Both the position numbers and the translations under genes were made by a program. Source: a bacterium (GTDB lineage Bacteria > Krumholzibacteriota > Krumholzibacteriia > LZORAL124-64-63). Taken from it: 64,000 nt of DNA. Position 1 is the first letter of the stretch, and each line of letters opens with the position of its first letter. The notes under the pieces were generated by a model. That model made no database searches and was not told the DNA's origin. It worked only from the letters and a program-made list of their open reading frames with translations. Of the stretch, positions 12,434 to 46,724 are shown in pieces. Where the stretch lies: positions 2,063,737 through 2,127,736 of the forward strand of contig JADJQR010000001.1 of the NCBI GenBank assembly GCA_016712675.1, written 5' to 3'.

Positions 12434-12436
12434 GCG

Positions 12437-14115: not shown

Positions 14116-14233
14116 CAGAGAGGGGCCCCGGCAATTATGTAAGGGGGGGCTCCGGCTGCTCGACCGGGCCTTTCGTTTTCTGGGGGCGTCGGGTGCGACG
14201 CCGCAGCAGCTTTCCGTGGCTGGAGGTAAGCAC

Positions 14234-21833: not shown

Positions 21834-22094
21834 ATGGTTCCAGTGCCCGCATTCCTGGGGAACATCGGCTGGCAGGAGATGCTGGTCATCCTGGTGTTCA
21901 TCCTGCTCTTCTTCGGGCCGAAACGACTGCCGGAAGTTGCCGAGGCCTTCGGCAAGTCGATCCGCAAGTTCAAGAGCGCGACGCAGGACGCCACGCGCGA
22001 GGTGCGCCGCGAACTGGAGGACGCCGGCAACGGGCGGCCGACGGACGCGCCGCCGCCCGGCAACGGGAAGCCCGAGGGTCCGGCGCAGCCCTGA
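21834..22094 (+). CDS. tatA: twin-arginine translocase subunit TatA/E
   Basis: FGPKRLPEVAEAFGKSIRKFK preceded by a TM helix; GGGAGG upstream. Confidence 0.85.
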   Translation: MVPVPAFLGNIGWQEMLVILVFILLFFGPKRLPEVAEAFGKSIRKFKSATQDATREVRRELEDAGNGRPTDAPPPGNGKPEGPAQP

Positions 22095-22110
22095 CCGCAC
22101 GGAGGTCGGC

Positions 22111-24420
22111 TTGAACCTAGCGCAACTGCTGGACCAGCTGAAGGCCGACGAGCGATTCCTGCGCCACGTGACCCGGTGGGAGGTCATCCCGCCGCAGCCC
22201 GCCCGCACGGCGCCCTTCCCGGCGAGTCTCGACCCGCGGCTGGGTGAAGCCCTGCGCCGACGCGGCGTGGCCGACCTGTACACGCACCAGGCCGATGCGG
22301 TGGCGCTCGCGGCGGCGGGGCGTTCGTTCGTGGTGCCGACGCCGACGGCCAGCGGCAAGACCCTTTGCTACAATCTGCCGGTGCTGGACGCCGTGCTCCG
22401 CGATCCCCAGGCGCGCGCGCTCTACCTGTTCCCGACCAAGGCCCTGGCCCAGGACCAGATGCACGAAGTCCATGGACTGGTGACGGAGCTGGGCGCCGAC
22501 ATCCGCACTTTCACCTTCGACGGAGACACGCCGGAGACGGCGCGGCGCGCCATCCGCAGCTCGGGCCACATCGTGGTCACGAACCCGGACATGCTGCACC
22601 AGGGCATCCTGCCGCACCACACGCTGTGGGTGAAGCTGTTCGAGAACCTGCGCTTCGTGGTTGTCGACGAGGTTCACCAGTACCGCGGCGTCTTCGGCAG
22701 CCATGTGGCGAACGTGCTGCGCCGGTTGCGGCGTGTGGCGCGGTTCTATGGGGCGGACCCGCAGTTCATCTGCTGTTCGGCCACCATCGCCAATCCGCGC
22801 GAGCTGGCCGAACGACTGACCGGCCTGGAGATGGCCGAGGTCGCCGACAACGGTGCACCGCGCGGCCTCAAGCATTTCATCTTCTACAATCCGCCGGTGG
22901 TCAACCGCGAGCTGGGCATCCGCGCCTCGACGATCAAGACCACGCGTGCCATCGCTGAACGCTTCCTGGGCACCGGCGCCCAGATGATCGTGTTTGCCCG
23001 CAGCCGCATGCGGGTCGAGCTGCTGCTGACCTACCTGGAGAAGGCCGGGCGGAGGGTCGGGATCCGCAGCGGCGAGGTGCGCGGCTACCGGGGCGGCTAC
23101 CTGCCCGGCGAGCGGCGGGCGATCGAGCAGGGGTTGCGCGACGGCACGGTCAAGGCGGTGGTGTCGACCAACGCGCTCGAGCTGGGCATCGACATCGGGC
23201 GCCTGGACGTCTGCATCATGGCGGGCTATGCCGGTACGGTGGCTGCGACCTGGCAGCAGGCCGGGCGCGCGGGCCGGCGCCAGAACGTGAGCGCGGTGGT
23301 GCTGGTGGCCTCGAGCAGTCCTGCGGACCAGTACATCGTCTCGAACCCGGACTTCTTCTTCGGGCGCAGCCCGGAATACGCGACGCTCGATCCGGACAAC
23401 CTGATCGTCCAGATGAGCCACCTGAAATGCGCAGCCTTCGAGCTGCCGTTCGTCGAGGACGAGGACTACGGCGGCCACCGGGTGACGGAGATCCTCGAGT
23501 ACCTCTGCGAGAACCGGGTCCTGCACCGCGCCGAAGGGCGCTTCCATTGGATGGCCGAAACGTACCCGGCCGAGGACGTGAGCCTTCGCAGCGCGGCGCC
23601 GGACAATGTCGTGATCATCGATGACTCGCGGCCGGGTGGCCTGGTGATCGGCGAGATGGATCTCTTCAGCGCGCAGGAGATGCTCCACGACGATGCCATC
23701 TACATCCACGGGGCGCAGCAGTACCACGTCGACCGGCTGGACTGGGACCGGCGGGAGGCGCACGTGCAGCCGGTGCAGGTGGACTACTACACCGATGCGC
23801 AGCGTAAGAGCGAACTGAAGACGCTGACCGCCGACGAGGCCAAGCCCTGCGGCGACGGCGGGCTCGCCGTCGGCGAGATCGGGCTGGTCTCGAAGGTGAC
23901 CGTCTACAAGAAGATCAAGCTGGGCACGCACGAGAACGTGGGCGCGGGCCGGGTGCACCTTCCGGAGATGGAGATGCACACGACCGGCTTCTGGTGGGAA
24001 GTGCCCGAGTCGGCGGCGGGGGATCTGGCCGCCTCGGGCCTGGACCTCGGCGACGCGCTCAAGGGCCTGGCGCACCTGCTGGGCTGCGTGGCACCTGTCT
24101 TCGTGATGGCCGACAGCGCCGACCTGCATGCCACGGCGATGATCCGGTCCCCCTTCACGGGCAAGGCGACGCTCTACCTGTACGACAGCGTGCCGGGCGG
24201 TGCAGGCTTTGCGCGCCGGATCTACGAGCAGTTCGACGAGATCCGCGCCGCCGCGCGCAGCCACCTGACGGGCTGTCCCTGCGGCCGCGGCTGCCCGGCC
24301 TGCGTGGGCGCGACCGTCGAGTCGGGCGACACGGCGCGCGCGGGCGCGGCCCGGCTCCTGGCGCTGGCGCCCGGCGGCCGTGACGAGGCGGGTCCGCTGG
24401 TCTCCGCGGCGGGCGGTTGA
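22111..24420 (+). CDS. mrfA: MrfA/YprA-like DExH-box helicase with C-terminal DUF1998 zinc ribbon
   Basis: TTG start with GGAGG 5 nt upstream (the track ORF start at 21937 would overlap tatA). Walker A TPTASGKT, DEVH box VVVDEVHQ, helicase C domain, and C-terminal CPCGRGCPACVG. Confidence 0.8.
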   Translation: MNLAQLLDQLKADERFLRHVTRWEVIPPQPARTAPFPASLDPRLGEALRRRGVADLYTHQADAVALAAAGRSFVVPTPTASGKTLCYNLPVLDAVLRDPQARALYLFPTKALAQDQMHEVHGLVTELGADIRTFTFDGDTPETARRAIRSSGHIVVTNPDMLHQGILPHHTLWVKLFENLRFVVVDEVHQYRGVFGSHVANVLRRLRRVARFYGADPQFICCSATIANPRELAERLTGLEMAEVADNGAPRGLKHFIFYNPPVVNRELGIRASTIKTTRAIAERFLGTGAQMIVFARSRMRVELLLTYLEKAGRRVGIRSGEVRGYRGGYLPGERRAIEQGLRDGTVKAVVSTNALELGIDIGRLDVCIMAGYAGTVAATWQQAGRAGRRQNVSAVVLVASSSPADQYIVSNPDFFFGRSPEYATLDPDNLIVQMSHLKCAAFELPFVEDEDYGGHRVTEILEYLCENRVLHRAEGRFHWMAETYPAEDVSLRSAAPDNVVIIDDSRPGGLVIGEMDLFSAQEMLHDDAIYIHGAQQYHVDRLDWDRREAHVQPVQVDYYTDAQRKSELKTLTADEAKPCGDGGLAVGEIGLVSKVTVYKKIKLGTHENVGAGRVHLPEMEMHTTGFWWEVPESAAGDLAASGLDLGDALKGLAHLLGCVAPVFVMADSADLHATAMIRSPFTGKATLYLYDSVPGGAGFARRIYEQFDEIRAAARSHLTGCPCGRGCPACVGATVESGDTARAGAARLLALAPGGRDEAGPLVSAAGG

Positions 24421-25634
24421 GCATGGACCTGCGCAGCAGGCTGGCGAAACTGGACCGGGCGGCCGGGCGACCGGCCCCCGGCTCCGCGCCGGCGGGAACG
24501 GGCGACCGACAGGCGCGGGCGGTCGTCGGCGAGCTGCCGGCGGAACTGGGCCTGCGCGAGGAGGCGACCCCGGACGGTCCCTGCTGGTACCGCGAGTGGC
24601 GCGAGTGCGCCGACGGGCCGGACGAGGTGCTGCCGGATCTCGGCGGCATCTTGACCCACCGCCAGCCGCGGGCTGCCGCGCGCGGCGACGTGCTGCTCCT
24701 GGACACCGAGACGACCGGACTGGCGGGCGGCACCGGCACGCTGGCGTTCCTGGTCGGGGTGGGCTGGTGGGAAGGATCCGAGCTTGTCGTCCGCCAGCTG
24801 TTCCTGCCGGGTCCGGGCCGCGAAGCCGGGCTCCTGGCAGCACTCGCCCAATGGTCGGCCCGGTTCAGCGCGGTCGTCACCTACAACGGGGCGTCCTTCG
24901 ACCTGCCTCTGCTGCGCACGCGGGCGCTGATGAACCGACGGGCCGACCCGTTGGGCCACCTGGACTCGTGGGATCTGCTGCCGGCTGCGCGCCGCCTGTG
25001 GGGGCGGGTCCTGCCCGATTGCCGGCAGCAGACGGTGGAAGCTTCGATCTGCGGGCTGGCGCGGGCGGAGGGCGACATCGAGGGCTTCCGCATCCCCGAG
25101 GTCTGGCGCGACTGGCTGGGCGGGAGCGGGACCGACGACCTCCTGTGCGTCCTGAGGCACAACCAGCGTGACGTGCGCGGCATGGCGGCCATCCTCGGCC
25201 GCGCCTGCGCGGCGCGCCAGGCCCTGGACCGCCCGGCGGCTCCCGGCCCGGGTGACCCGCTGCGCGCGTGGACCCTGGCGCGCGTGGCGCAGCGACGGCG
25301 GGACCACGCTGCGGCCGCCGACTGGATCACCGTGGCCTTGTCAACCGGTTCCGGGCCCGCTGGGGTGGACGGACAGCTGCTGGCGCGCGACGCGGTGCCG
25401 ATGCTCAAGCGGGTGGGCCGCTGGAGCGAACTGGAACGACTGCTGGGAGCGCGGATCGCCGCGGGCGCCGGCGCCTGGGCGCACCGCGAGGCGGCGATCC
25501 TCTACGAGCGACGCCTGCATCGGCTGGACAAGGCCCTGTTCCATGCCGGGCAGGCGGATGAGTCGGCGCGCGTGGCGCGCCTGAAGCGGCGGCTGGAGCG
25601 GGCCGCCGGAACGCGAAAGGCGGAGGGACCATGA
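24417..25634 (+). CDS. mrfB: MrfB/YprB-like RNase-H-fold 3'-5' exonuclease
   Basis: VLLLDTETTGL (DEDD exonuclease motif I) and a TPR-like C-terminus; ATGA overlap with the mrfA stop. Confidence 0.7.
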   Translation: MSMDLRSRLAKLDRAAGRPAPGSAPAGTGDRQARAVVGELPAELGLREEATPDGPCWYREWRECADGPDEVLPDLGGILTHRQPRAAARGDVLLLDTETTGLAGGTGTLAFLVGVGWWEGSELVVRQLFLPGPGREAGLLAALAQWSARFSAVVTYNGASFDLPLLRTRALMNRRADPLGHLDSWDLLPAARRLWGRVLPDCRQQTVEASICGLARAEGDIEGFRIPEVWRDWLGGSGTDDLLCVLRHNQRDVRGMAAILGRACAARQALDRPAAPGPGDPLRAWTLARVAQRRRDHAAAADWITVALSTGSGPAGVDGQLLARDAVPMLKRVGRWSELERLLGARIAAGAGAWAHREAAILYERRLHRLDKALFHAGQADESARVARLKRRLERAAGTRKAEGP

Positions 25635-26062
25635 TCAGGCTGGCACGGCACGAGGGGCACCTGTTCGTTGCGGGCGTGCGTGTGCTGGTGCATCGCCTGG
25701 GCCGGGGCCCGACGCCGCAGGAACTGGCCGACCTGCTCGCGGCGAACGAGAGCCAGGTGCGTCTGCAGGCCGCGGCGCTGGAGGACCTGGGGGCCATCGC
25801 GCTGGTCAGCAGTGCGTTCGAGACGCACCTGGAGCTCCGCGACCACCTCCGCCTGGAGCAGCTCGCTGAGAGCGACGGTCCTGCCATCAGCGACGCCTTG
25901 CGCGATTTCGACGAACGCAAGCGCGAGGAAGCCGAGAAGATGGCGCGCCTGTTCGACACGGGCGAAGCGGAGCAGCAGCGCCAGGACCAGCTGCGGCGGA
26001 TGGACGACGACCTGCGCGACTTCCGGCGCAAGCGTCCGCGAAACCCGTTCAGCGAGGAATGA
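25631..26062 (+). CDS. hypothetical 143-aa protein coupled to mrfB (possible wHTH N-terminus plus charged coiled coil)
   Basis: ATGA overlap with the mrfB stop; PTPQELADLLAANESQVRLQAAALEDLGAI is helix-turn-helix-like, and the C-terminus is E/R/D/Q-rich. Confidence 0.45.
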   Translation: MIRLARHEGHLFVAGVRVLVHRLGRGPTPQELADLLAANESQVRLQAAALEDLGAIALVSSAFETHLELRDHLRLEQLAESDGPAISDALRDFDERKREEAEKMARLFDTGEAEQQRQDQLRRMDDDLRDFRRKRPRNPFSEE

Positions 26063-26109
26063 AGCGAAGAGCCTGCGATGCTCGCCACGACGGGCCCGGA
26101 ACGGGACGG

Positions 26110-26131
26110 CCCGGGACATGTGCGTCCCGGG
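26110..26131. terminator. bidirectional hairpin between convergent genes
   Basis: CCCGGGAC-atgtgc-GTCCCGGG (8-bp stem) between the + strand orphan and - strand ppiD. Confidence 0.5.
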
Positions 26132-26159: not shown

Positions 26160-27959
26160 TCAGCCGTCGCGGCGCAATTCCGCTCGGCGGTCCTCGATCT
26201 TGGCGGCGCCCACCTGTTCCTGCAGCCACTTCTCGACGGCCTCGTTCTGGGCCTGCATCATCAACGCCTGCTGAATGCCGGCCCGACGGGCGCCGAAATC
26301 GGCTTCGTCGATGGGCTTGATCCACAGCGGCATCCCGGCGTAGACGCCCCGCGCGGTTTCGACTTCCGGCGTCAACCGCCCGACCAGTCCCTCGATGACC
26401 TGCTTGTTGAAGTCGGTGCCGAAGCCGATCTCGGGTACGTTGCTGTTGTAGGAGAAGGTATCGGTCACGGCGTACTTGAGCCCGTGCTGCGCGGCGGCCT
26501 GGCTGACCGCGGCGCCGGTGTTGATGGCGGCGAGCGCCGGGGCCAGGCGCTGCTTCGCGACCTGGATGTTATGCTGGTTGCGCAGGGCCAGCATGACCTG
26601 GCTTCGGACCTCTTCCAGGGGGCGCAAGCCGGCGGGCTCCACGCGCTCGGCCAGGACGACATAGAAGCACTCGTCGTTCTCGAAGACCGGGCTGATCGCC
26701 CCGGCCGAGACACCGAAGAGCCAGCTGGTACCCTGCAGCGAGAGCGGCAGGCCTGGGATGTCGCGCCCGCGCGAGATGGCCGCGGGCTTGAGCAGGTCGT
26801 GCGCCTCGGCCTCGGCCGTGGTGACGAAGCTCCCGGCGTTCACGCGCTGGCGGAACGACGCGGCGCTCTCGGCGATCTGGTCGATGGTCTGCGGTCCGGG
26901 CGTGATCTTCATCAGGATGTGGCGGGCGGTGACCTGGCCGGCCGCCTCGTCGCGCGCCGTCACCTCGATCAGGTGGAAACCGAACTGCGTGCGCACGGGC
27001 TCACTGATCTGGCCGACGGCCAGGCCGAATGCAGCCTCGGTGAACTCCGGGACCATGCGGGTGCGATCGAACGCACCGAGGTCGCCGCCGCGCTGACCGC
27101 TGCCGGTGTCGTCGCTGTACTGCCGCGCGGCCGTGGCGAAGTCGAGCTTGCCGGCGGCGATGTCGGACTTGATCTCGGCGAGCGTGTCGAGGACATCCTT
27201 CTCGTCGGCACTGCTGGCCGCCTTCGGGAAGCGCACCGCCTTGCAGTAGGCCAGTCCGTCGTGGCTGTAGTCGTCGGGATGGGCGACATACCAGGCTTCG
27301 ATCTCCTGGTCGGTCGGGCTGTAGCCGTCGCTGATGTCGTTGAAGGCGACTCCGACGTACTCCGCCATGGCGCGACCCGACTGCCGCAGGTACTCGCGAC
27401 GCACATCCTCTTCCGGCACCACGGCCTGGCCGGCGATGCGATCGGCGAGCTTCTGGGTCAGCATGACCTGCCGGACATAGGCCTCGACCGGGCCCCAGTT
27501 GTTCTGGGGATTCTGCAGATCGGCGCGGTAGCGCGCGATGTCGATCTGCCCGTTCTCGTCACGGTACTGCTGCAGGATCTCGGCCGGGGGATCGTTCAGG
27601 AAGCGGTCGAGAAGCTCCTGGTCCGTGACCTTCAGCTTCGCGTCAGCGATGGCCTTGTCGATGATCGTCTGCTGGACCAGCGATTCCCAGGCGCGGTCCT
27701 GCGCCGCAGCATACTGGTTGGCATTGAGCTCGCGGTCCGGCGATTGCTGGCGCATCATCGCCACCTGCTGGCGCACGGTGTTCTCGAAGTCCTCGGCCGT
27801 GATCTGCCGGCCGTTGACCGACCCGATGACACCCGACGCGATCTGGCCGCCGCCGCGGTTGCAGCCCGCATCGCCGAAGCCGAGGTAGACGAAGGCCAGG
27901 AACGACAGGGCGATCACCCAGTAGAACAGCTTCGCCCTCGAACGCAGGAACTGGAACAT
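26160..27959 (-). CDS. ppiD: periplasmic chaperone PpiD (SurA-N domain plus parvulin PPIase)
   Basis: MFQFLRSRAKLFYWVIALSFLAFV membrane anchor, SurA_N-like region, parvulin domain (FGFHLIEVTARDEAA). Start chosen at the internal Met of the 646-aa track ORF. Confidence 0.8.
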   Translation of the reverse strand: MFQFLRSRAKLFYWVIALSFLAFVYLGFGDAGCNRGGGQIASGVIGSVNGRQITAEDFENTVRQQVAMMRQQSPDRELNANQYAAAQDRAWESLVQQTIIDKAIADAKLKVTDQELLDRFLNDPPAEILQQYRDENGQIDIARYRADLQNPQNNWGPVEAYVRQVMLTQKLADRIAGQAVVPEEDVRREYLRQSGRAMAEYVGVAFNDISDGYSPTDQEIEAWYVAHPDDYSHDGLAYCKAVRFPKAASSADEKDVLDTLAEIKSDIAAGKLDFATAARQYSDDTGSGQRGGDLGAFDRTRMVPEFTEAAFGLAVGQISEPVRTQFGFHLIEVTARDEAAGQVTARHILMKITPGPQTIDQIAESAASFRQRVNAGSFVTTAEAEAHDLLKPAAISRGRDIPGLPLSLQGTSWLFGVSAGAISPVFENDECFYVVLAERVEPAGLRPLEEVRSQVMLALRNQHNIQVAKQRLAPALAAINTGAAVSQAAAQHGLKYAVTDTFSYNSNVPEIGFGTDFNKQVIEGLVGRLTPEVETARGVYAGMPLWIKPIDEADFGARRAGIQQALMMQAQNEAVEKWLQEQVGAAKIEDRRAELRRDG

Positions 27960-28209
27960 CGAACGAACCCCTTGCCGGTGGTTGACCAGGCCGACCGGCC
28001 GGCGGGCGCCTGCAAACGGGCCCGAACGGACGGAATCGGCACAACAAGTCACGGCGTCGCCGGACGGACCGGCTCGCCGCGCAGCAAATCGACTCCCCAT
28101 GATGGCAGAAACGGGCCGGATTCACAAGTTGCGCGTGGCCCGCGACGCGCTTTGCGCTAGACTGCGCCGGCCGGCGTGAGTGCTGCCCGGCAACCAACGG
28201 GAGGATGCC

Positions 28210-28647
28210 GTGCAGTGGAACGCGGGCCTGGTGGCCCTGCTGAGCGGCCTGCTGGCACAGGCGGGCAAGGTGGTCTGGGAGGCGGCGGCGCATCGGCGCT
28301 GGCGCCCCTGGTTGTTTTTCGCGAACGGTGGCATGCCCAGCTCGCATGCGGCCACGGTCACGACCCTGGCCCTGCTGGTCCGGCGGGCAGATGGGGCCGG
28401 TTCGGCGCAGTTCTCCCTGGCCATCGTCTTCGGCGTCTTCGTACTGTTCGAAGCGACGGGGCTGCGCCAGGAGATGGGTAAGCAGGCGCGCCTGCTGAAC
28501 GAACTGCGGGAAGCCCTGCACGACGGACGCAGGCTGCCGGGGGCGCCCTTGCGGGAGCTGGTCGGGCATACCTGGGGCGAGGTTTGCGGGGGTGTGGTCT
28601 GGGGCGTGGGGGGGTACTACCTGCTGCGCGCATTGGTCATGGGGTAA
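28210..28647 (+). CDS. DUF212 / divergent PAP2-like membrane protein
   Basis: GGMPSSHAATVTTLALLV motif; GTG start with GGAGG 5 nt upstream. Confidence 0.55.
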   Translation: MQWNAGLVALLSGLLAQAGKVVWEAAAHRRWRPWLFFANGGMPSSHAATVTTLALLVRRADGAGSAQFSLAIVFGVFVLFEATGLRQEMGKQARLLNELREALHDGRRLPGAPLRELVGHTWGEVCGGVVWGVGGYYLLRALVMG

Positions 28648-28845
28648 CCCGATGATCACGGCTGCGTGACATCGTAAGGGGATCATTATTTTTGCTGTTG
28701 ACAACAACCCCGGCGGCGCTAGGGTCGACGGTGGTGGCGTACGTGTTCCCGAGGCAGGGCTCGCGCACGACGCGCCGTGGCGCTGCCCGGGCTGGAGGCC
28801 CGTGCACGTGGGAGGACCCGCGATCCATGGTCGAAAGGATTCGGC

Positions 28846-29919
28846 ATGCGCGTCGTAGCCTTGGCCAACCAGAAAGGTGGTTGCGGAAAGACCACCACCG
28901 CGACCAACCTCGCCGCCGCCCTGGCCCAACTCGGACACAAGGTCCTGCTGCTCGACAACGACCCGCAGGGGCACGCGACGCTGTCCTTCGGCTTCCGTGA
29001 GCGCGACTTCACGCTCAGCACCTACGACCTGTTCCTCACCACCGACATCCTGGTCGAGGACGCGTTTCTCGAGATCGAGCCGGGGTTGCACCTGGTGCCA
29101 GCGGGCGTGGAGCTGAGCGCGGTCGAGATGGCGCTGGCCCGGGAGCCCGAGCGTGACGTGCGCCTGCGCGACAACCTGCGGCGCAGCGCGCTGCCATACG
29201 ACTACATCCTGATCGACTGCCCGCCCAGTGTCGGCCTGCTCACGTTCAACGCGCTGCTGGCCAGTGGCGAGGTCATCATCCCGGTCGACCCGAGCTGCTA
29301 CGGGCTGCAGGCCGTGCGCAAGATGCGCGAGACGCTGACGATGCTGCGCCAGAAGAAGGGGCACGACGTCGTTCCGCGGGTCCTGATGTCGGGCTTCGAC
29401 ACCCGGCCGTTGTTCGTGCGGAAGATCATGGAGGAACTGGCGGAGCTGTACCCTGACGACCTCATGGAGACGATCATTCACCACACGGTGCGCTTCCGCG
29501 AGGCTGCGGGAGCGGGGCTACCTGTTGCCCGGCTCGATCCCGATTCGCGCGGCGCCCATGATTTCCGGATGCTCGCGCGCGAGGTAGCGGGCAAGGAGTC
29601 TCTCGTGGCGGTGCCGGCACTGGACCACTGGACGGCCCTGCTGCATGGCCCGCAGGTGACGAAGGCGGGCGTTCGCTTCGAGGCGGATTTCCCCAGGGCG
29701 CGCTCGGTGCGTTTGACCGGGACATTCTGCAACTGGTCGGCCAAGGGTCTGGCGCTGGCCAAGCGCGAGGATGGTATCTGGGAGGCCCATCTGCAGTTGG
29801 AGAACGGCCGGCACCAGTACCGCTTCATCGTCGATGGCGCCTGGCTGCCCGATCCGCACAACACCGAAACGGTAGCCAACGAATTCGGCGGGGCCAACAG
29901 CCTGCTGCTCGTGCCTTGA
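28846..29919 (+). CDS. ParA/Soj-family P-loop ATPase fused to a C-terminal CBM48 (AMPK-beta glycogen-binding-like) domain
   Basis: Deviant Walker A VVALANQKGGCGKTTTATNLAAALA and LLLDNDPQGHAT. The C-terminal ~90 aa read VRLTGTFCNWSAKGLALAKREDGIWEAHLQLENGRHQYRFIVDGAWLPDPHNTETVANEFGGANSLLLV, which is the CBM48 / AMPK1_CBM pattern. Confidence 0.8.
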   Translation: MRVVALANQKGGCGKTTTATNLAAALAQLGHKVLLLDNDPQGHATLSFGFRERDFTLSTYDLFLTTDILVEDAFLEIEPGLHLVPAGVELSAVEMALAREPERDVRLRDNLRRSALPYDYILIDCPPSVGLLTFNALLASGEVIIPVDPSCYGLQAVRKMRETLTMLRQKKGHDVVPRVLMSGFDTRPLFVRKIMEELAELYPDDLMETIIHHTVRFREAAGAGLPVARLDPDSRGAHDFRMLAREVAGKESLVAVPALDHWTALLHGPQVTKAGVRFEADFPRARSVRLTGTFCNWSAKGLALAKREDGIWEAHLQLENGRHQYRFIVDGAWLPDPHNTETVANEFGGANSLLLVP

Positions 29920-29947
29920 CGCCGGCCGGCTGCGTGGCGCTGCCGGG

Positions 29948-30799
29948 ATGCACCAGGGAACCGGAGACCACGGCATGATGGGTTGGCCACGACAGGGTGG
30001 TGGCGCCGGCGGCGGCAGCCGTGCACACCACATCGACGAGATCGCCCACCATTTCCTGGCCGAGGACGACGTCCCGCCGGCGGATATTCCGGCGGTGGTC
30101 GTCGATGCCGCCATTGCGGCGGCCGGGCCGGGGCGCGCGGCGGCCTGCGCAGCCGCCGGTTTGGCGGTCGCGGCCGGGACGATCGGGCTTGGCAGCTGCC
30201 TGATCGAGGACGATGCGGTGGCCTGGTCCTCGTTCTCCTTCCTCGGCCAGTCCCCGCCGCGGGCACTGCCACCGCCGCTGGCCGCGGATCTGCCACGAGG
30301 GGTTCGCTGCCGGAGGGTCGATGACGGCGCGCCGGTACCGCGCTCGTGGGTGCGTTGGCGTCTGCTGGGCGAAGCGTCGGAGGAAACTCTCGCCGCGTGG
30401 GAAGTGCCGAGCGGGCTGCCGGCGGCGGCGCGCGCCCGTATGCCACGCTGGGGAGCACTGGTGTGGTGCGTGGCACCACACGACGCGGCCTTGTCTGCGG
30501 CGCAAGATGCGCTGCGCCGCCTCGTGGGACTGCTTGAGCCGTCGCACGTGGAGTTCCTGGTGCTGCCGACGGCCTGGGACGCGCGGCCCGGCGGCTGGCG
30601 GCTGATCGGTCGGCGCAGCGACCCAGGCTGGCACAACCTGGCGCATCTGCAGGAGGTGGTTCGCGCGGCGGTGGGCGAGCGTCCGGCGGTCGTGCGCCTG
30701 GTTCCGGATGTCGGCGTCGCCGGGGCCGAGGCGGTGGCCGTCCTGGCCGAAATCGCCGGCGCGGTGGCCGGGTCGTCCGCTGCGCGGGCGGCGGGCTGA
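29948..30799 (+). CDS. hypothetical Ala-rich protein immediately downstream of the ParA-CBM48 gene
   Basis: 283-aa ORF 28 nt after the ParA stop, same strand. I recognise no motifs in it. Confidence 0.4.
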   Translation: MHQGTGDHGMMGWPRQGGGAGGGSRAHHIDEIAHHFLAEDDVPPADIPAVVVDAAIAAAGPGRAAACAAAGLAVAAGTIGLGSCLIEDDAVAWSSFSFLGQSPPRALPPPLAADLPRGVRCRRVDDGAPVPRSWVRWRLLGEASEETLAAWEVPSGLPAAARARMPRWGALVWCVAPHDAALSAAQDALRRLVGLLEPSHVEFLVLPTAWDARPGGWRLIGRRSDPGWHNLAHLQEVVRAAVGERPAVVRLVPDVGVAGAEAVAVLAEIAGAVAGSSAARAAG

Positions 30800-35390: not shown

Positions 35391-35435
35391 CGGACCGACA
35401 GACGATGGACCGACAAGCAAGGGACCGACAAGGCG
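35391..35435 (+). repeat. three direct repeats of GGACCGACA with 15-bp period
   Basis: GGACCGACAgacgat / GGACCGACAagcaag / GGACCGACAaggcgt between the methyltransferase stop and the likely start of the downstream orphan. Confidence 0.7.
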
Positions 35436-35467
35436 TGAAGCGACGAGTCCGGACGGGGAGGGGCGGC

Positions 35468-36766
35468 ATGGCGCGACGCAGGCGCGGCGTTCTGATGGTC
35501 ACGCTGGTCGGGGCGCTGGCTGGCCTGGCCTTCCTGACGGCTGGACAACCGGGTGCGGTGGATTGGCGTCGCCTGCGCGCCGTGGCCTTGCACAGTGACG
35601 ATTGGGGTTTGGCGGGCTTCGTGCCGTCGGTCGACGCCTGGGTCGGCTTGGACAGGGCAGCCCTGTCTCCTGGGCGCTTCCCGGACGTCTACTGGAATTC
35701 GACGCTCGAGGACAGCGCCTGCGTGGCCCGGTTGGCGGCGGTTTTGGCCGGCGGCCGCGGGCGCGACGGGCGCCCGGCCGTCCTGCAGCCGAACTACGTG
35801 GTGTCGGCGCTGGACTGGACCGGCGGACAGTGGGTCCGGCGAGACCTGCCCGACTTCCCGGAGACCTACCGACGGCCCGGGCTGTGGCAGGCGATGGCCG
35901 AAGCCATGTGGGCCGGGGTTTGGTATCCCGAGTACCATGCGGCCTGGCATTACGACCCGCAACGGCGACGTCAGGCGGTCGCTGCCGGCGGCGTGGCCCT
36001 GGCGGCGGCCGAACGGGGGGTCATGCTCTTCCCGGGCAGCGAAGCGGCGCGGGAATTGGGCCCGTGGCGTCCGACCTCCGAACTTGCCGCGGAGCTCGAT
36101 GCCGGACTGGCCGTGTTCACGGCGGCCTTCGGACGGGGTCCGGGTTCCATCATCGCACCTGATTACACCTGGGATGGCCGCTGCGAGGACCTGTGGGAAT
36201 CCCGGGGGCTGACCGTGATCCAGGCCAAACGCGAGCAGCGCCACCCGGGTCTGCCGCCGGGCGCTGGTGGCCGGGTGCTCAAGGTCCTGGATCGGCAGTG
36301 GTCGCGGGCGCGCCATCGCGGCCGGATCTACCTCGAGCGCAATTGCCGGTTGGAGCCGGCACAGGCGCCTGACGCGGGTGCGGTTGTGGCGGCGTGCCTG
36401 GATCAGACGCGGCGCGCTTGGCGGTGCGGAGAGCCAGCCATCGTCGAGACCCACCGCGTGAATTTCGCGCACGGCGACGCGGCCGTGGCTGCGGCCGGAC
36501 GCGAGGCCTTGGCCGTCTATCTTGCCGGGCTGGCAGGGCTGGGGGAGACGGGCCCGGTATTCCTGGTCGATGCCGAGATCGCCTCCCTGGTTCGCCGGGG
36601 GACAAGCCTGGTCGAGGCTGGCGACGTCCTGGTGGCACGAAACGGCACCCGTTCGCGGCGCCTGGCGATCCCGGTCGCGCCGGCGGGTCCGCCGAAGGGG
36701 ACGGTAGCGTTGTACCTGCTCGAAGGAGGGTTCCAGGGCCTGGTGGCGGCCGGGCGTTCTCGCTGA
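35468..36766 (+). CDS. hypothetical secreted protein (RRRR plus hydrophobic N-terminus)
   Basis: MARRRRGVLMVTLVGALAGLAFLTA is signal-like, possibly Tat. Otherwise unrecognised; HSDDWGL is weakly deacetylase-like. The track ORF starts at 35405, within the repeats. Confidence 0.45.
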   Translation: MARRRRGVLMVTLVGALAGLAFLTAGQPGAVDWRRLRAVALHSDDWGLAGFVPSVDAWVGLDRAALSPGRFPDVYWNSTLEDSACVARLAAVLAGGRGRDGRPAVLQPNYVVSALDWTGGQWVRRDLPDFPETYRRPGLWQAMAEAMWAGVWYPEYHAAWHYDPQRRRQAVAAGGVALAAAERGVMLFPGSEAARELGPWRPTSELAAELDAGLAVFTAAFGRGPGSIIAPDYTWDGRCEDLWESRGLTVIQAKREQRHPGLPPGAGGRVLKVLDRQWSRARHRGRIYLERNCRLEPAQAPDAGAVVAACLDQTRRAWRCGEPAIVETHRVNFAHGDAAVAAAGREALAVYLAGLAGLGETGPVFLVDAEIASLVRRGTSLVEAGDVLVARNGTRSRRLAIPVAPAGPPKGTVALYLLEGGFQGLVAAGRSR

Positions 36767-37130: not shown

Positions 37131-40100
37131 ATGAATGCGTCCGTCATCCGTGTCTTGTCCCGCTTCGCCCTCGCGGGCACGCTCGCGATCCTGGCTCCCC
37201 TCAGCGCCCTGGGCGCCGGTGCGGGCGTCGTGGTCCATGAAGGTTCGTTCGCGGCGCGCGATCTCGCCTGGGAGCGCGATCGCGACGGCGCGGCCTATCC
37301 CGCGCTGCCCGGTCTGCGCGGCATCGATGATCCCGGCAGCCCACGCCTGCCGTTGCAGACGCTGCTGTTGCTCGTGCCAGCTGACGCGAACGTCGTCGAC
37401 GCCTGGATCGAGCCGCTGCAGACGCACGCCGAGAAGGTCCCCGGCCCGCTGGCGCGGGGCGAGGCCCTGTTCACCGACACCGGCGGGAAGGTGTTGACCA
37501 AGCGCCTTCCCGATGACGGTGCGACCTACCCGGCCGCCTGGGGTCGCTTCGCCGGCACCCACACCTGGCGCGGCTACCGCCTGCTCGCCGTCGAGGTCTA
37601 TCCCCTGCGGCAGGCCGGCGAGGGCGACGAGATCACGCTGGAGTTCCTGGACCGCTACGCGGTACGCGTCGCCTACGGCGCGACGCCGCCCTCTGACGAC
37701 ATGGCCATTCGCGGCCGTCTGTCCGCGGCCGAGGTGAAGGCGAACAACGACATGCTGGCACGCCTGGTGGCCAACCCCGGCGAACTTGCCGGCTACCGGC
37801 GCGAACACGGCGTGGCCGTGGCGACGCCAGCCGGCGGCTTCAGTCCCGACAAGACGCCTAGCTTGTCCGGCAGCGCGGTCGAGTACCTGATCATCACGAA
37901 CGAGGCGATGAAGCCGGCGTTCGAGGTGCTGGCGGCCCACAAGACGGCCCAGGGTCTGCCGACGGTCGTCGCCACGCACGAGTTCATCGAGGCGAACTAC
38001 CGGCAAGGCGCGGATCTGCAGGAATCGGTGCGGATGTTCATCCGCGACGCCTACGAGAAGTGGGGTTTGGAGTATGTGCTGCTGGGTGGCGACTCGGACG
38101 TCCTGCCTCCGCGCTACGTGATCAATTCCTTCTACCCTATCAGCGGTTCCACGGCGATCCCCTGCGATCTGTACTTCGCGTGTCTTGACGGCAGCTGGAA
38201 CGCGGACGGGGACCATCTCTATGGCGAACCGGTCACCGCCACGACCACGGGTGACCTGGCCGACTTCGCCGAGGAGGTCTACATCGGGCGCGCAGCGGTC
38301 TCGACGCCGGAAGCCGCGACCGTCTTCGTGAACAAGGTGATCGGCTACGAGGGTGTGCCCGCGGGCGCCGCCTGGACGAACCGCGCGCTGTTCGCGGCCG
38401 AGGTGCTGTTCCCGGAGGACTTCCAGCACGAGGGTTACATCATCCTGGACGGCGCGAAGTTCGCCCACGAGCAGATCGTCAACCACATCCAGCCGTGCAC
38501 CGACATGGAGTACACCCGGATGTACGAGACCGACCTGCAGTACCCGCGTGACGCGGGTCTGACGCGGGCGGCATTGGTCGACACGCTGGACACCGGCCAC
38601 TACGGCATCGTCAACCAGATCGGCCACGGCTACTACTTCAACATGTCTGTTGGCGACGCGAACTTCATGACGACCGACGCCGACAACCTGACCAACGCCG
38701 GGCGCCCGTTCATGATCTACGCGCTCAACTGCGCCTCGGCCGCCTTCGACAACAGTTGTCTGCTCGAGCGGTTCGTGCAGAACCCGGGCGGCGGTGCCGT
38801 CTGCTCGATCGGGTCGGTTCGCGCGGCATTCCCGAACAACTCGAACGCCTACCAGCAGGAGTTCTTCAGCGAGTTGTACTGTACGGCGGAGAACCGCGTC
38901 GGCCGTCTGCTGGCGCTGAGTCGGCTGCCGTTCATCGGGTTGACGGCCAACAATTACGTCGACCGCTGGACGTTCGAGAACTACACGCTGCTCGGGGATC
39001 CGACGCTGCCGATCTGGACCGGCGTTCCGCAGGCGGCGTCGGTGGCGGCTCCGGCTTCGCTCGCCGTCGGCGCGCAGGTCCTGCCGGTCACCGTCACCGT
39101 TGCCGGGATGCCCGTCGCCGGCGCGCGCGTTTGCCTGCAGAAGGCAGGCGAGGAACTGGCCTGGGGCCTGACCGATGGGGCCGGGCAGGTCAGCCTGTCC
39201 GTCCTGCCGACCAGCCCCGGTTCGGCCACCCTCACGGTGACGGGACGCAATCTGGCCCGGTACGCGGCCACGCTGCCGGTGGTCGCCGGCGGCGCCTATC
39301 TGAAGGTCGAATCCGCGTTCATCGCGGACAACGGTGTCGGGGGGAGCGACGGCAACGGGGACGGTTTCGCCGACGCGGGCGAGACCATCGCGATCTGGAT
39401 GGTCCTGCGCGAGACGGGGGGCGTGCCGGCGACCGGCCTGGTCGGCACGGTCAGCTGCGCGCAGCCCGGGGTGACGATCCTGGTGCCGACGGCTTCGTTC
39501 GGGTCGGTTCTGGCGGGGGGCACCGCCCCGGCTCTGACCCCGCTCGTGGTGGCGATCGATCCGGCAGTGGTCGACGCGGCGACGCTGGTGTTCACGATGG
39601 ACGTCGCGCACGGCGGCGGCAGTTCGTTGTCGGAGTGGCCCCTGACGGTGAGGGCGCCCGAGCTCGAGGTCGCCCTTCTGGACTGGGAAGACGCGACGTG
39701 GGGCGACGGGGACGGCATGCTCGAGATCGGCGAACGCCTGGGTGTGACGGTGGCCGTCAAGAACTACGGCACCGGGGCGAGCGGCCCGGTGACCGGCGTC
39801 CTGCGGACCGACAGCGCCTTCGTGACGCGCTACGACTCGCTGGCGACCTGGGCGACCCTGGGCCTGCTGGAAGAGGGGACCGGCGGCCCCGCGTTCTCGA
39901 TGGCAATCGATCCCAGCCGCAACAGTGCCGCGCGGATCGTCCTGACGGACGCTCACGGACGCACGCTGCGGCACGACTTCACGCTGCCGCGGCCGGACAC
40001 GCCGACGGGGATCAATACCGACACTTCGCTGGGCGCCGATGTCATCGCCATCTCCTGGGCGCCATCGGTGGCGACGGACATCCGTGGGTATCACGTGTAC

Positions 40101-42102: not shown

Positions 42103-43749
42103 ATGGACGTGCGGCACGGGACGCGGGCGACGACGGCCGGGCGGGCGGCCTTGGGCTGGGCGCTGGCCTTGGCGCTCCTGGCCGGCTGCAGCCGGCGCGA
42201 GGGAGCGCCTCCGGCCGCGCGGGATCCGGTTCCGGTGTCGGGAGGCACGGCCCTGGTGGCGTTGGCCTCCGAACCGGACGTCCTGAACCCGCTGCTTCAT
42301 GCCTCGGCCACGGCGGGGCAGGTCATTGCGGAACTGCACGACGGACTGACCGACATGGATGAGTCGCTCGAGTACGTGCCGCGCATCGCGCGCAGCTGGG
42401 ACCTGGCTCCGGACAGCCTGTCGATCACCTACCACCTGAAGCCATGGCGCTGGTCGGACGGGCAACCGCTGACCGCGCGGGATGTCGTGGAATCGCTCGG
42501 TCTGTTCAAGGACGAGCGTGTCGCGAGCCGCCGCCGCAGCCTGTACGACGCGGTGACCGGCGCTGTCGCGCTCGATGACAGCACCGTGCGCTACGACCTG
42601 GCACGGCCGCTGCCGGATCCCGTTCAGGCGACCTGGCACCATGTCCTGCCCTGGCACGTTGTCGGCGGGCTGGATCCGGCGACCGTGGCCTCCTGGTCGA
42701 TCAATCGCCAGCCGCTGGCCTCGGGCGAGTTCCAACTCGAGTCCTGGGCCCCCGGGCGGGAGCTGGTGCTGACCCGCAACCCGTACTATCCGGGCAGGGC
42801 AGCGCGGTTGGAACGCGTGGTCTTCCGTATCGTGCCGGAAGAGGCGACGCGCCTGCTCATGCTCGAGACCGGGGAAGTCGACGTCGCGGACGGCGTCTCG
42901 CCCGCGGCGGCCGGCAGGCTGGAGGCGCGCGGTGACCTGCGCCTGGTGGCAACCGGGGGGCGGCGCATCTATTACCTGCAATGGAACTGCCGCAACCCCG
43001 CCCTGGCCGACGCGGGGACGCGGCGGGCGCTGTCCTTGGCGTTGGACCGCGACCGCATGGTGGCCACCCTGCTCGCCGGCTACGGGCGCACGGCCGTGGG
43101 GCCGATTCCACCCGTGATGTGGAATCATCACCGGGACCTGGCGCCGCCAGCATGCGATCCGCCGGCCGCACGGCGCGAACTGGCGGCGGCCGGTTGGACC
43201 GACAGCGACGGCGACGGCGTCCTGGAGCGGGGCGGTCGTCCGTTGAAGTTGGAGATGCTGACGCGCAGCGGCGATCCGGTGCGTGAACAGGGCGCGGTGA
43301 TCATCCGGGAGAACCTGCGCGCGGTGGGTGCCGACGTCCAGGTGCGCACGATGGAACAGGTGGCCGGCCTCGAACGCGTGCGTGAAGGGCTGTTCGACGC
43401 CTATTTCGGGTTGCTGGTCGCGAACCTGCACGGGAACCCGTCGCCGTACGTGCGATCGACTGCGGTCGGCGAGTACAACCAGGGTCACTACGCCAACGCG
43501 ACCGTTGATTCCCTGCTGGACACGGCACTTTCGGAACCCGATCGGCAGCGCGCGCTGCCCGCCTGGTTGCGCCTGCAGGAGGTCCTCGCCGCGGATCCTC
43601 CCTCGGCGTACCTGTTCTATCCCGATATCCTGGTGGCGGTGAACCGTCGCCTGCGTGACGTGCGCCCCCACCTGCTGTCGCCGGTCAACAACCTGGCCGA
43701 ATGGTGGATCGCGCCGGCCTCAATGCGCAGAGGGAAGGTCTCCGAATGA
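42103..43749 (+). CDS. ABC transporter substrate-binding lipoprotein, family 5 (peptide/nickel type)
   Basis: Lipobox LLAGCS; SBP_bac_5 features (NPLL...DGLT, RNPYYPG). Confidence 0.8.
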   Translation: MDVRHGTRATTAGRAALGWALALALLAGCSRREGAPPAARDPVPVSGGTALVALASEPDVLNPLLHASATAGQVIAELHDGLTDMDESLEYVPRIARSWDLAPDSLSITYHLKPWRWSDGQPLTARDVVESLGLFKDERVASRRRSLYDAVTGAVALDDSTVRYDLARPLPDPVQATWHHVLPWHVVGGLDPATVASWSINRQPLASGEFQLESWAPGRELVLTRNPYYPGRAARLERVVFRIVPEEATRLLMLETGEVDVADGVSPAAAGRLEARGDLRLVATGGRRIYYLQWNCRNPALADAGTRRALSLALDRDRMVATLLAGYGRTAVGPIPPVMWNHHRDLAPPACDPPAARRELAAAGWTDSDGDGVLERGGRPLKLEMLTRSGDPVREQGAVIIRENLRAVGADVQVRTMEQVAGLERVREGLFDAYFGLLVANLHGNPSPYVRSTAVGEYNQGHYANATVDSLLDTALSEPDRQRALPAWLRLQEVLAADPPSAYLFYPDILVAVNRRLRDVRPHLLSPVNNLAEWWIAPASMRRGKVSE

Positions 43750-43784
43750 TGGTCATCCGCGGGCTGATCCCGTATATTCAGGTC

Positions 43785-45736: not shown

Positions 45737-45960
45737 CACGGCGTCGGCTCCCGCGCTGGAGTGGAAGGATGGCGACCGGAGGTTAGCATGTACCGCCTCC
45801 TGCCGACAACGGCGTCGATGATCCATTTTCTCTCTTTCTTCGCTGGACTTTCACCAAGATTTCGTCTACTGTGGCCGGGCCGGTCGGGGACCGGTGGGAG
45901 GGGTGCGGCCACCGGCGGCCCCGTGCCCGAGCGTGCCGACCAAGCCCGAGGAGGGAACCG

Positions 45961-46566: not shown

Positions 46567-46724
46567 ACGGCTCGCGGGTCCGGGCGCGGTGGGCGCCGGG
46601 CCTGGTTAACGGGGCCGGCCGCCCCCGGCGGCTCCCCCTAGGTTGACGCCCCCGCCTTCGGCAGGTAGCATACCCGGAAGTCACGCATGCACTTTCGGGC
46701 TTCCTGGCGCGGAGCGGGGCGAGC

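Follow-up and report, generated by a model that had tools for sequence, protein, structure and literature searches.

A ParA-type ATPase carrying an AMPK-beta-like glycan-binding module and its pseudo-ATPase neighbour: a candidate glycogen-positioning pair conserved across bacterial phyla

ATPases of the ParA/MinD family are general positioning machines of bacterial cells, with chromosomes, plasmids, carboxysomes, chemoreceptor arrays, the divisome, flagella and secretion machines as their known cargos. Storage granules can also be held on the nucleoid, as by PhaM of Ralstonia eutropha, a passive tether that binds both DNA and PHB granules and involves no ATPase cycle. To our knowledge, the spacing and inheritance of bacterial glycogen particles are essentially unstudied, and we know of no characterised ParA system whose cargo module sits on the ATPase rather than on an adaptor. 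Our searches of the accessible literature for a ParA joined to CBM48, to glycogen or to carbohydrate binding found no relevant paper, in line with an earlier note on this DNA, whose author knew of no described ParA system for glycogen or for a polysaccharide assembly machine. Within chromosomal ParABS systems, the ParA-binding motif at the N-terminus of M. xanthus ParB consists of hydrophobic residues that surround one central R/K, R13 (PMC12462528).

The locus presented here lies in a 64-kb window, i.e. the whole stretch of DNA that was analysed, and comprises a ParA-CBM48 fusion gene followed by a second gene on the same strand (Table 1). The 28846 ATG was accepted as the start of the fusion because AGGA stands 7–11 nt upstream and because the 81 homologues (81/81) share the N-terminus MR..A..NQKGGCGKT. 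The strings previously quoted from this protein (KGGCGKTT, DNDPQGHAT, LTGTFCNW, GRHQYRFIVDGAWLPDP and NSLLLV) were each found in its sequence. A public MAG protein with 100% identity to the 28846-29919 product bears the sole label ‘AAA family ATPase’, and the annotation of all fusion copies is generic, JGI using ‘chromosome partitioning protein’. The promoter-like element upstream, within an AT-rich island of the DUF212/parA gap, went unscored in the consensus scan because its -10 hexamer agrees at just 3/6 positions. The hairpin at the end of the second gene is at most suggestive of a two-gene transcription unit, since such sites are no commoner than in shuffled sequence; overall, promoter and terminator scans of the region gave no excess over the shuffled expectation.

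Table 1. Features of the fusion locus, with positions counted from the first letter of the window.
Feature	Coordinates	Strand	Extent	Basis
Promoter-like element TTGACA-16 nt-TAGGGT	28698..28725	+		read from sequence; weak
ParA-CBM48 fusion gene	28846..29919	+	357 aa plus stop	ORF, Pfam
Soj-type ParA ATPase domain	28846..29595	+	aa 1-250	Pfam, PDB matches, Foldseek, residue conservation
Flexible linker	29596..29652	+	aa 251-269	AF2 model, low conservation
AMPK-beta-type CBM48 beta-sandwich	29653..29916	+	aa 270-357	Pfam, PDB matches, residue conservation
Partner gene, predicted ParA/MinD-fold pseudo-ATPase	29975..30799	+	274 aa	longest ORF from 29948
N-terminal peptide SRAHHIDEIAHHFLA of partner	30017..30061	+	aa 15-29	alignment, motif enrichment, AF2 model
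Strand 1 of partner, with degenerate P-loop and beginning of helix 1 (VVVDAAIAAAGPGRAAAC)	30095..30148	+		alignment, secondary structure, hhalign register
Terminator-like hairpin and T-run, overlapping partner stop codon	30793..30819	+		scan; weak

The ParA identity that had been read from the N-terminus of the fusion was recovered by Pfam, AAA_31 scoring 157 bits (cut-off 27) and CbiA 68 bits over this domain. Its top PDB sequence matches were M. xanthus ParA 8RAY (E 1.9e-47) and T. thermophilus Soj, and Foldseek aligned it to Soj/ParA structures with TM scores of 0.87–0.92, the value of 0.92 being reached with both B. subtilis Soj and M. xanthus ParA. The Walker A motif is of the deviant type (NQKGGCGKTT), with the signature lysine K10 and K15 both invariant; K10, G11, G12, C13, G14, K15 and T16 show no variation among the 81 homologues, which come from more than ten phyla, and the same holds for D37 and D39 of Walker A' (in DNDPQ) and D124 of Walker B (in LIDCPP). 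Among the positions that bear on DNA binding, R187, the counterpart of B. subtilis Soj R189, is retained in 79/81 homologues, and basic residues are kept at K/R216 and at K/R218 in 75/81 each. In addition, of the six residues that make up the ParB pocket in M. xanthus ParA, four (L150, L152, L155 and L187) correspond to conserved hydrophobic positions of the fusion family (129, 131, 134 and 166). Judged from these residues, the fusion is predicted to be a catalytically intact Soj-like ATPase, whose ATP-bound dimer most likely binds the nucleoid non-specifically. The linker that follows is little conserved among homologues, and its aa 253-266 have a pLDDT below 50 in the AF2 model, flanked by two confident domains.

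The second gene had been described as an unrecognisable, Ala-rich protein of 283 aa, starting 28 nt downstream of the fusion, that could be its partner. The gene is genuine, with 28 homologue clusters at identities down to 45% and a coding-type GC3 of 0.81, and alanine indeed makes up 21% of the protein. Its boundaries were revised: homologues and public annotation use the ATG at 29975, with GGAG 9–12 nt upstream, instead of 29948, so that the protein is probably 274 aa long and the gap to the fusion 55 nt, not 28 nt. The protein also proved recognisable. Neither Pfam nor NCBIfam gave a match; the structural model shows a SIMIBI fold of the ParA/MinD type in which the P-loop is destroyed, and the N-terminus bears a diverged ParB-like peptide. 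The loop (AAGPGRAAAC) has neither GK[ST] nor the signature lysine, and the strand where Walker B would stand (ALVWCV) is without Asp. Fold and homology both place the protein in the SIMIBI ParA/MinD group, the link of the window's own partner clade to ParA being fold-level and transitive. For instance, hhalign detected nothing between ParA and a narrow alignment of the partner clade nearest the window, and against MinD-like partners this alignment matched by its N-terminal motif alone (probability 10.6%); homology was detected once deep-branching Krumholzibacteriota members had joined the alignment. As modelled, this fast-evolving gene would encode a ParA/MinD paralogue that lost its nucleotide-binding loop.

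The N-terminal peptide connects the partner to relatives in other lineages. Its canonical form there is LG(R/K)GL..SHLFLS, KLGRGLEDVSHLFLS, while SRAHHIDEIAHHFLA of the window is a diverged LG(R/K)GLxDVSHLFLS, in which HH replaces the (R/K)G of relatives and which hhalign aligns with the canonical motif. R16, H18, I20, D21, A24, H25 and F27 are invariant among 27 homologues, and the AF2 model shows the peptide as a lone helix (aa 19-27) within a tail of low confidence. Like the ParB motif, LG(R/K)GLxDVSHLFLS places hydrophobic residues about one central R/K, and we propose that it is a ParA-binding and activating peptide. Its position is strongly tied to the fusion: across the 81 loci, the strict motif occurred 38 times within 200 nt past the fusion stop vs 11 times elsewhere in six-frame space, and a relaxed motif was found in at least 50 of them, in the gene after the fusion and within 1.3% of the search space. 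The converse search, in which motif-bearing metagenome contigs were found with a degenerate DNA pattern, yielded 118 assessable contigs; 99 of these (84%) had a CBM directly upstream, comprising 81 with ParA plus CBM and 18 with a CBM on contigs that end before the ParA.

Gene order supports the proposed partnership as well. The partner family stands directly downstream of the fusion in every Krumholzibacteriota locus reaching far enough, and the three partner homologues looked up in reverse (3/3) all adjoin an upstream ParA-AMPK1_CBM gene. Beyond Krumholzibacteriota, a motif-bearing partner follows the fusion in many phyla, and none was recognised in many Omnitrophota- and Planctomycetota-group loci. 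The same full-length architecture of the fusion is found in Krumholzibacteriota, Omnitrophota, Planctomycetota, Myxococcota, Desulfobacterota, Acidobacteriota, Gemmatimonadota, Nitrospirota and others, and a profile search returned at least 7996 proteins at E <= 1e-20; conservation of the system extends over at least ten bacterial phyla. Its members cluster in phyla that have received little study, among them Omnitrophota, Planctomycetota, Krumholzibacteriota and Acidobacteriota.

The explanation that we favour, while granting it slightly less than an even chance, is that the pair constitutes a two-component positioning module of the ParA/MinD type, made of an ATPase and its activator, that is coupled to glycogen. 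The ATP-bound dimer of the Soj-like ATPase would bind the nucleoid non-specifically, and each of its subunits would hold alpha-glucan (glycogen) through a CBM48 on a flexible linker. The partner would contribute a pseudo-ATPase body and a disordered N-terminal tail bearing the ParB-like peptide. Glycogen particles would in this way be held on the nucleoid by dynamic tethering and spread over it, and thus be spaced and inherited by both daughter cells. Weighing against this explanation are the lack of glycogen genes in the window, the divergence of the window's own peptide, the fold-level and transitive nature of the link between its partner clade and ParA, the many Omnitrophota- and Planctomycetota-group loci without a recognised partner, and the CBM-free ParAs described next.

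An unlikely, but serious, contender is a glycogen-sensing regulator, in which the ParA/partner couple would position or regulate some other cargo, set by its partner proteins (the MinD-like pseudo-ATPase and, in other phyla, a NucS-like protein), and the CBM48 would only report or exploit the carbon-storage state, as in AMPK beta, for instance with glycogen sequestering the ATPase. Known systems do have their cargo specified by the partner. Moreover, about 9% of the motif-bearing partners pair with a ParA of the same subfamily that has an acidic tail in place of the CBM, so that the CBM is to be seen as an accessory module and not as the core of the system. The peptide is also modular, the protein that bears it being MinD-like in some cases and PD-(D/E)xK/NucS-like in others, and three-gene modules whose third protein is NucS-like are common in other phyla. 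An anti-phage defence role, raised by this nuclease-like third gene, was considered and dropped: PADLOC gave weak candidate-family matches there and nothing for the pair, apart from trivial P-loop matches for the fusion. Against the regulator stands the strong constraint on the CBM, present in 84% of the motif-linked ParAs, together with a gene neighbourhood in which the recurrent cross-phylum members are alpha-glucan enzymes and in which no candidate alternative cargo gene was seen to be conserved near the fusion. Because the CBM is not obligatory in the couple and because one of its sugar-contact positions is unconserved, glycogen is a cargo that we infer.

The nature of the C-terminal domain bears on a second alternative. 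Its assignment to CBM48/AMPK-beta, made in the earlier note, was borne out by AMPK1_CBM (PF16561, aa 285-356, 47.5 bits, E 2.1e-12, cut-off 26.8) and by CBM_48 (PF02922, 27.6 bits, cut-off 22.4). In the AF2 model, aa 270-356 fold into a beta-sandwich of eight strands (block pLDDT 84–94), and W297, W312, Y325, W333 and D336 show little or no variation among the 81 homologues. The top PDB sequence matches were the CBMs of AMPK beta2 and beta1 (E ~1e-9). The CBM region by itself, searched against 1.8 billion representative proteins, returned 9044 matches, which were mostly proteins with tandem CBM48 copies and uninformative on the distribution of the fusion. The same search was the source of the domain-association data, in which the closest relatives from other architectures belong to GH13 amylase/pullulanase and GH57 enzymes. 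A sandwich of this type could nevertheless have ceased to bind sugar and now act as a protein-protein or dimerisation module for an unknown cargo, which we consider rather improbable. We take the sugar-contact residues of AMPK beta1 (structure 1Z0M) to be W100, K126, W133, L146 and N150. The position of W100, one of the two stacking tryptophans, has no conserved aromatic in the fusions, where positions 280-282 vary, and this also speaks against glycogen as cargo; furthermore, for many of the CBM48 domains that branching and debranching enzymes carry, glycan binding is not known. Conversely, four of the five contact positions are conserved across more than ten phyla, with R/K326 in 78/81 homologues, W333 in 81/81, F/Y347 in 61/81 and N/D351 in 81/81, and both domain associations and gene neighbourhoods indicate alpha-glucan. 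The CBM48 of the fusion most likely binds alpha-glucan, i.e. glycogen.

The gene neighbourhood differs between the window and the other phyla. In agreement with the earlier note, Pfam identifies DUF212, Wzy_C, GT4/GT1 and WecA-like GT4 genes around the pair, together with a methyltransferase gene, and the 64-kb window holds no glycogen genes that we could find. DUF212 lies upstream of the fusion in 16/16 Krumholzibacteriota loci, and was set aside because no other phylum has it beside the fusion. The neighbours that recur across phyla are instead the alpha-glucan enzymes GH57, GlgB and GlgC: a GH57 gene stands ~650 nt upstream of the fusion in 12–14 Omnitrophota-type loci, GH57 with a GlgA-like gene, GlgB and GlgC lie less than 5 kb from it in three loci (L023, L076 and L080, respectively), and three PVC-group contigs with the fusion carry DUF4912 plus a GH57/BE_C branching enzyme. 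The earlier proposal of a new cargo-positioning module, for glycogen or for a polysaccharide assembly machine, stands as regards the fusion and its conserved partner, which belong to a widespread family and are not peculiar to this genome, while the assembly-machine link is unsupported because the Wzy_C, GT4 and WecA-like neighbours are confined to one Krumholzibacteriota clade in which the entire 10-kb region is syntenic. That the pair positions or regulates an envelope polysaccharide machine, in a BcsQ-like role, is hence very unlikely. This possibility draws on the same-strand order of the pair, Wzy_C, GT4, WecA-like GT4 and methyltransferase in the window and its close relatives, and on a score of 55 bits for Pfam CBP_BcsQ on the fusion. 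However, the BcsQ equivalog TIGR03371 reaches 87 bits, under its cut-off of 158, envelope-glycan genes are absent beside the fusion in all other phyla examined and dispersed through the whole window, and the relatives of the fusion CBM sit on alpha-glucan enzymes. Finally, an ordinary chromosome-partitioning ParA with an incidental extra domain, as the chromosomal Soj/ParA identity of its nearest solved relatives and the labels of several databases, JGI's among them, could suggest, is hardly credible given that no ParB-type gene adjoins the fusion in any locus examined, that the neighbour has a ParA/MinD and not a ParB fold, that the NCBIfam ParA_partition equivalog scores 124 bits under a cut-off of 180, and that the fusions form their own subfamily with an invariant KGGCGKT, present in Myxococcota, which have a separate canonical ParAB (PMC12462528).

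Should the glycogen-positioning module be confirmed, the fusion family would add a carbohydrate cargo to the ParA/MinD repertoire, along with a new design in which the cargo module is carried by the ATPase and a pseudo-ATPase paralogue acts as activator, and with a portable ParB-like peptide that moves among unrelated partner proteins. We suggest, with a little more reserve than for the module itself, that this could be the first ParA/MinD system with a polysaccharide storage granule, glycogen, as cargo, with its binding module on the ATPase and a dead paralogue bearing a ParB-like peptide as activator, in at least ten phyla. As the family is very large and found in poorly studied phyla, one biochemical characterisation would inform the annotation of thousands of genes that at present go under the name ‘AAA family ATPase’ or ‘chromosome partitioning protein’.

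Compared with described systems, the pair combines features that are otherwise found apart. The CBM48 resembles that of AMPK beta, its top PDB match, in conserving the counterparts of K126, W133, L146 and N150; unlike in AMPK beta, the counterpart of W100 is unconserved and the module is borne by a P-loop ATPase instead of a kinase scaffold subunit. BcsQ/BcsR likewise ties a ParA/MinD-family ATPase with a small partner to polysaccharide biology, but the equivalog score is far under its cut-off, the window has no bcs genes, and the context across phyla is one of cytoplasmic alpha-glucan enzymes, not of a secretion machine. PhaM is close in concept, a storage granule held on the nucleoid passing to both daughters, with no homology to the pair. 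With ParABS (chromosomal ParA/Soj plus ParB), the fusion shares the Soj-type fold with its deviant Walker A, the counterpart of the DNA-binding arginine and a mostly conserved hydrophobic pocket for a partner peptide, and the partners of relatives have an LG(R/K)GL-type N-terminal peptide with one central basic residue, of which the window shows a diverged form. It differs from ParABS in that the partner has a P-loop NTPase fold with a pseudo-ATPase body in place of the HTH and CTPase (ParB/Srx) domains of ParB, that there is no parS context, and that a CBM48 ends the ATPase. McdA/McdB, PomXYZ, PpfA/TlpT and ParC/ParP also set an orphan ParA-type ATPase beside a small, fast-evolving partner, whose N-terminus would be the activator, with the nucleoid as presumed matrix. 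Those systems carry their cargo on the partner, whereas the putative cargo module is here on the ATPase, an arrangement whose route to a Brownian-ratchet gradient is not obvious. Unlike in them as well, the cargo would be a polysaccharide instead of an assembly of proteins, and the partner appears to be a degenerate ParA/MinD paralogue.

Pfam scores, start-site evidence and homologues of both genes confirmed the fusion of a ParA ATPase to a CBM48 domain that had been proposed for this locus, and corrected the start of the partner gene downstream. The 357-aa fusion product matched AAA_31 (157 bits) and CbiA over residues 1-250, and over residues 269-356 both AMPK1_CBM (47.5 bits, E 2e-12, cut-off 26.8) and CBM_48 (27.6 bits, cut-off 22.4), each above its cut-off. 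AGGA lies upstream of its start, with which the MR..A..NQKGGCGKT opening of all 81 homologues in our cross-phylum comparison agrees, and in the AF2 model (pLDDT 86.7, pTM 0.70) a low-confidence linker (residues 253-266) connects two confidently modelled domains. The fusion product matches a public MAG protein at 100% identity, named there only 'AAA family ATPase', and close relatives of it carry the label Candidatus Krumholzibacteriota. The ORF that follows is likewise a genuine gene (28 homologue clusters, identity down to 45%, numerous invariant Trp, His, Arg and Cys residues), with a consensus start at 29975, preceded by GGAG, that yields 274 aa.

Walker A (KGGCGKT), D37/D39 and Walker B D124 were invariant across the 81 fusion homologues from many phyla, and the nearest solved proteins to the ATPase half were chromosomal ParA/Soj proteins, namely M. 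xanthus ParA (8RAY, E 1.9e-47) and the Soj proteins of T. thermophilus and H. pylori by sequence, and B. subtilis Soj and M. xanthus ParA (TM 0.92), followed by McdA, by fold. R187, the putative counterpart of the DNA-binding R189 of Soj by alignment, was retained in 79/81 homologues, and basic positions 216 and 218 in 75/81 each. Mapping the pocket for the ParB peptide in M. xanthus ParA (V116, L150, L152, L155, L187 and L192; PMC12462528) onto the family through the alignment to 8RAY revealed four conserved hydrophobic equivalents (V/L129, L131, F134 and L/M166), a partly hydrophobic position 171 and a polar Q95.

The partner had been called unrecognisable, which holds for Pfam, NCBIfam and PADLOC, where it had no match, but not for its predicted structure and remote homology. 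Its AF2 model, built with 27 homologues (pLDDT 78.6), showed a disordered N-terminal tail with a single short helix (residues 19-27), followed by an alpha/beta fold of the P-loop type. The strand-loop-helix at the expected P-loop reads AAGPGRAAAC and the Walker B strand ALVWCV; the partner is a predicted pseudo-ATPase, because the homologue alignment has no GK[ST] and no Asp at the nucleotide-binding sites. Among the 81 loci, this orphan family proper lies directly 3' of the fusion only in Krumholzibacteriota-type loci, and in other phyla the gene after the fusion usually encodes a ~300-aa protein classified as ParA/CbiA by Pfam. These MinD-like partners, often with a degenerate Walker A, share homology with the ParA domain (hhalign 97.7%, E 1.4e-12) and matched a broadened orphan alignment (hhalign probability 95.4%, E 2e-8) from an N-terminal motif through strand 1, the loop and helix 1 to strand 2.

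This motif, a proposed ParA-binding and activating peptide, opens the MinD-like partners and deep Krumholzibacteriota members as [KR]xLG[RK]GL[ED]D[VI]SHLFLS and takes the diverged form SRAHHIDEIAHHFLA in the window's partner. Its position is highly non-random, the strict form occurring 38 times within 200 nt past the fusion stop versus 11 times in all other six-frame space of the 81 loci, and a relaxed form in 50/81 loci within 1.3% of the search space. The motif resembles the ParA-binding peptide of M. xanthus ParB, which turns helical within the pocket of the ParA dimer (PMC12462528). A PD-(D/E)xK/NucS-like protein, which is a separate third gene in other lineages, carries the motif in Acidobacteriota, Gemmatimonadales and some loci labelled Deltaproteobacteria; judged from these sequences, the peptide is modular across partner proteins. 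The third component (~200-230 aa), conserved after the pair in many phyla and absent from the window, has a PD-(D/E)xK/NucS-like signature (..IDLLAVD..g.l.iIDvd..), no Pfam match and weak matches to PADLOC candidate families (PDC-S18, PDC-S11). It is the second gene after the fusion at loci L016-L026, L036, L073 and L085-L090, and the first at L064 and at L033, L035, L042, L043, L068 and L071, where it bears LGRGLEDVSHLFLS itself and replaces the MinD-like protein.

A tblastn scan covering a single genome for each GTDB species recovered 80 loci with a near-complete match to the fusion (residues 1 to at least 339), distributed over Krumholzibacteriota, Eisenbacteria, Omnitrophota, Planctomycetota (Phycisphaerae, Pirellulales and others), Myxococcota, Desulfobacterota, Thermodesulfobacteriota, Acidobacteriota, Gemmatimonadales, Nitrospirae, Margulisiibacteriota and one Thiogranum. 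A profile search gave at least 7996 matches with E <= 1e-20 among 8000 scored candidates; in the 120 matches listed, PF16561 was always present and the only names were 'AAA family ATPase' and 'chromosome partitioning protein'. The two genes also proved to be conserved together, since, besides the Krumholzibacteriota-type loci, three of three orphan homologues looked up in reverse (57%, 49% and 45% identity) sat directly behind a ParA-AMPK1_CBM gene.

Reciprocally, a degenerate DNA pattern encoding GLEDVSHLFLS matched 120 metagenome contigs: 81 with ParA and CBM immediately upstream, 18 with an upstream CBM and the contig end reached before ParA, two with the CBM only, two with the same ParA subfamily lacking a CBM, and nine from one Acidobacteria-like group in the order partner then ParA, whose ParA ends in an acidic tail with no CBM. 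These upstream-gene counts establish the ParA/partner couple as the core and the CBM as a dominant (84%), not obligatory, addition; a cognate pair of ParA and putative activator is supported with good confidence. A motif partner beside a KGGCGKT ParA of this subfamily, which scores about 340 bits against the ParA profile of the family, without CBM48 is seen at L202, L207, L208, L144, L177 and L196, the partner coming first in L202, L207, L208 and L144; the inverted order of the Acidobacteria-like group accompanies an acidic disordered C-terminus.

The best PDB sequence matches of the fusion's CBM were the AMPK beta2 and beta1 CBMs (E about 1e-9). Of the AMPK beta sugar contacts, which we take to be W100, K126, W133, L146 and N150, the last four have equivalents in R/K326 (78/81), W333 (81/81), F/Y347 (61/81) and N/D351 (81/81), whereas no conserved aromatic occupies the W100 position in the 81 homologues; glycan binding by this domain is therefore plausible, not assured. 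Elsewhere, its closest kin are tandem copies on GH13 amylase/pullulanase and GH57 catalytic domains. The main alternative to a role in positioning glycogen is that the CBM would be a sensor or sequestration handle, the true cargo being set by the partner proteins.

Across phyla, the recurrent functional neighbours of the fusion were alpha-glucan enzymes: GH57 ~650 nt upstream in 12-14 Omnitrophota-type loci, GH57 with a GlgA-like gene at one Thermodesulfobacteriota locus, GlgB 1.4 kb downstream at one Desulfobacterota locus, GlgC at one Omnitrophota locus, and DUF4912 with a GH57/BE_C branching enzyme 2.5-4.5 kb downstream on three PVC-group contigs. This represents about 5-6 independent lineages among 65 loci outside Krumholzibacteriota versus roughly one locus by chance, on a rough estimate that assumes about 6 glycogen genes among about 3000 genes and about 10 genes neighbouring each locus. 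No glycogen gene lies within the 64-kb window, and we link the fusion/partner system to alpha-glucan with moderate confidence. At L087, L088 and L089, the three-gene module is followed by Cu-oxidase_4 (YfiH/PgeF-like), DUF4912, which may itself be glycogen-related, and a GH57 branching enzyme with BE_C. An Omnitrophota-type clade (L038, L040, L049, L054, L058, L060, L061, L065, L066, L070, L072, L074, L075, L077 and L079) has a different conserved neighbourhood, in which an alginate-export-like porin and GH57 come first, a 191-aa membrane protein lies directly before the fusion, and after it follow a 108-aa membrane protein (some loci), a 134-aa protein rich in lysine and a DUF134 regulator; no LGRGL..SHLFLS partner was recognised in this clade.

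The link to envelope-polysaccharide machinery suggested in the earlier note found no support past clade synteny: DUF212 upstream and Wzy_C, GT4, WecA-like GT4 and methyltransferase genes downstream of the pair recur as an arrangement only in a single clade of Krumholzibacteriota, which shares synteny throughout the region, and envelope-glycan genes are scattered and do not cluster at the pair, because GT9 and Bac_transf genes lie elsewhere in the window. All 16 Krumholzibacteriota-type loci have the DUF212 (divergent PAP2) gene directly 5' of the fusion, and in no other phylum is it next to the fusion. The window has ~70% G+C and nearly all genes on the + strand; the helicase and RNase_H_2-superfamily genes look like a MrfAB-type DNA-repair pair.

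Features of the window, with coordinates in nucleotides
Position	Strand	Feature	Remark
51-7494		Chemotaxis cluster	CheA-CheW-receiver hybrid kinase, MCP with Tll0287-like sensor domain, CheB, CheR
10000-14000		Highest G+C of window	75-77%
10924-12105; 13003-14379	-	ORFs	Coding-like GC3
21937-25634		DEAD/Helicase_C/MZB helicase (MrfA-like) and RNase_H_2-superfamily protein	4-nt overlap; followed by 143-aa protein without Pfam match
25502-26119	-	205-aa ORF	Coding-like GC3; with PpiD-like gene, the only other such minus-strand ORFs
26160-28100	-	PpiD-like gene	Coding-like GC3
28180-28647		DUF212 gene	198 nt before fusion
28698-28725		TTGACA-16-TAGGGT	In AT-rich island of DUF212-fusion gap
28846-29919	+	ParA-CBM48 fusion	
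29975-30799	+	Partner	
35405-36766		453-aa ORF	Coding-type GC3, no Pfam family; directly after WecA-like gene and methyltransferase
37131-41966		1611-aa protein	Peptidase_C25 (gingipain-type), FG-GAP repeats, C-terminal FlgD_ig-like domain
43701-45353		550-aa ORF	Coding-type GC3, no Pfam family
45871-50851; 52594-53709; 57278-57961		LexA, Hsp20, Lon, then two GT9 genes; Bac_transf further on	GT9 heptosyltransferase-like; Bac_transf sugar transferase

No paper on a ParA-CBM48 fusion or on ParA-based glycogen positioning was found, in line with the claim that no such system had been described, although an earlier description is possible because literature coverage was incomplete. We tentatively propose, as a reading that falls slightly short of probable, that glycogen granules would be dynamically tethered to, and distributed over, the nucleoid by the ParA/partner pair. 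Such a role would resemble the positioning of carboxysomes by McdAB, and would be alike in concept only to that of PhaM on PHB granules.
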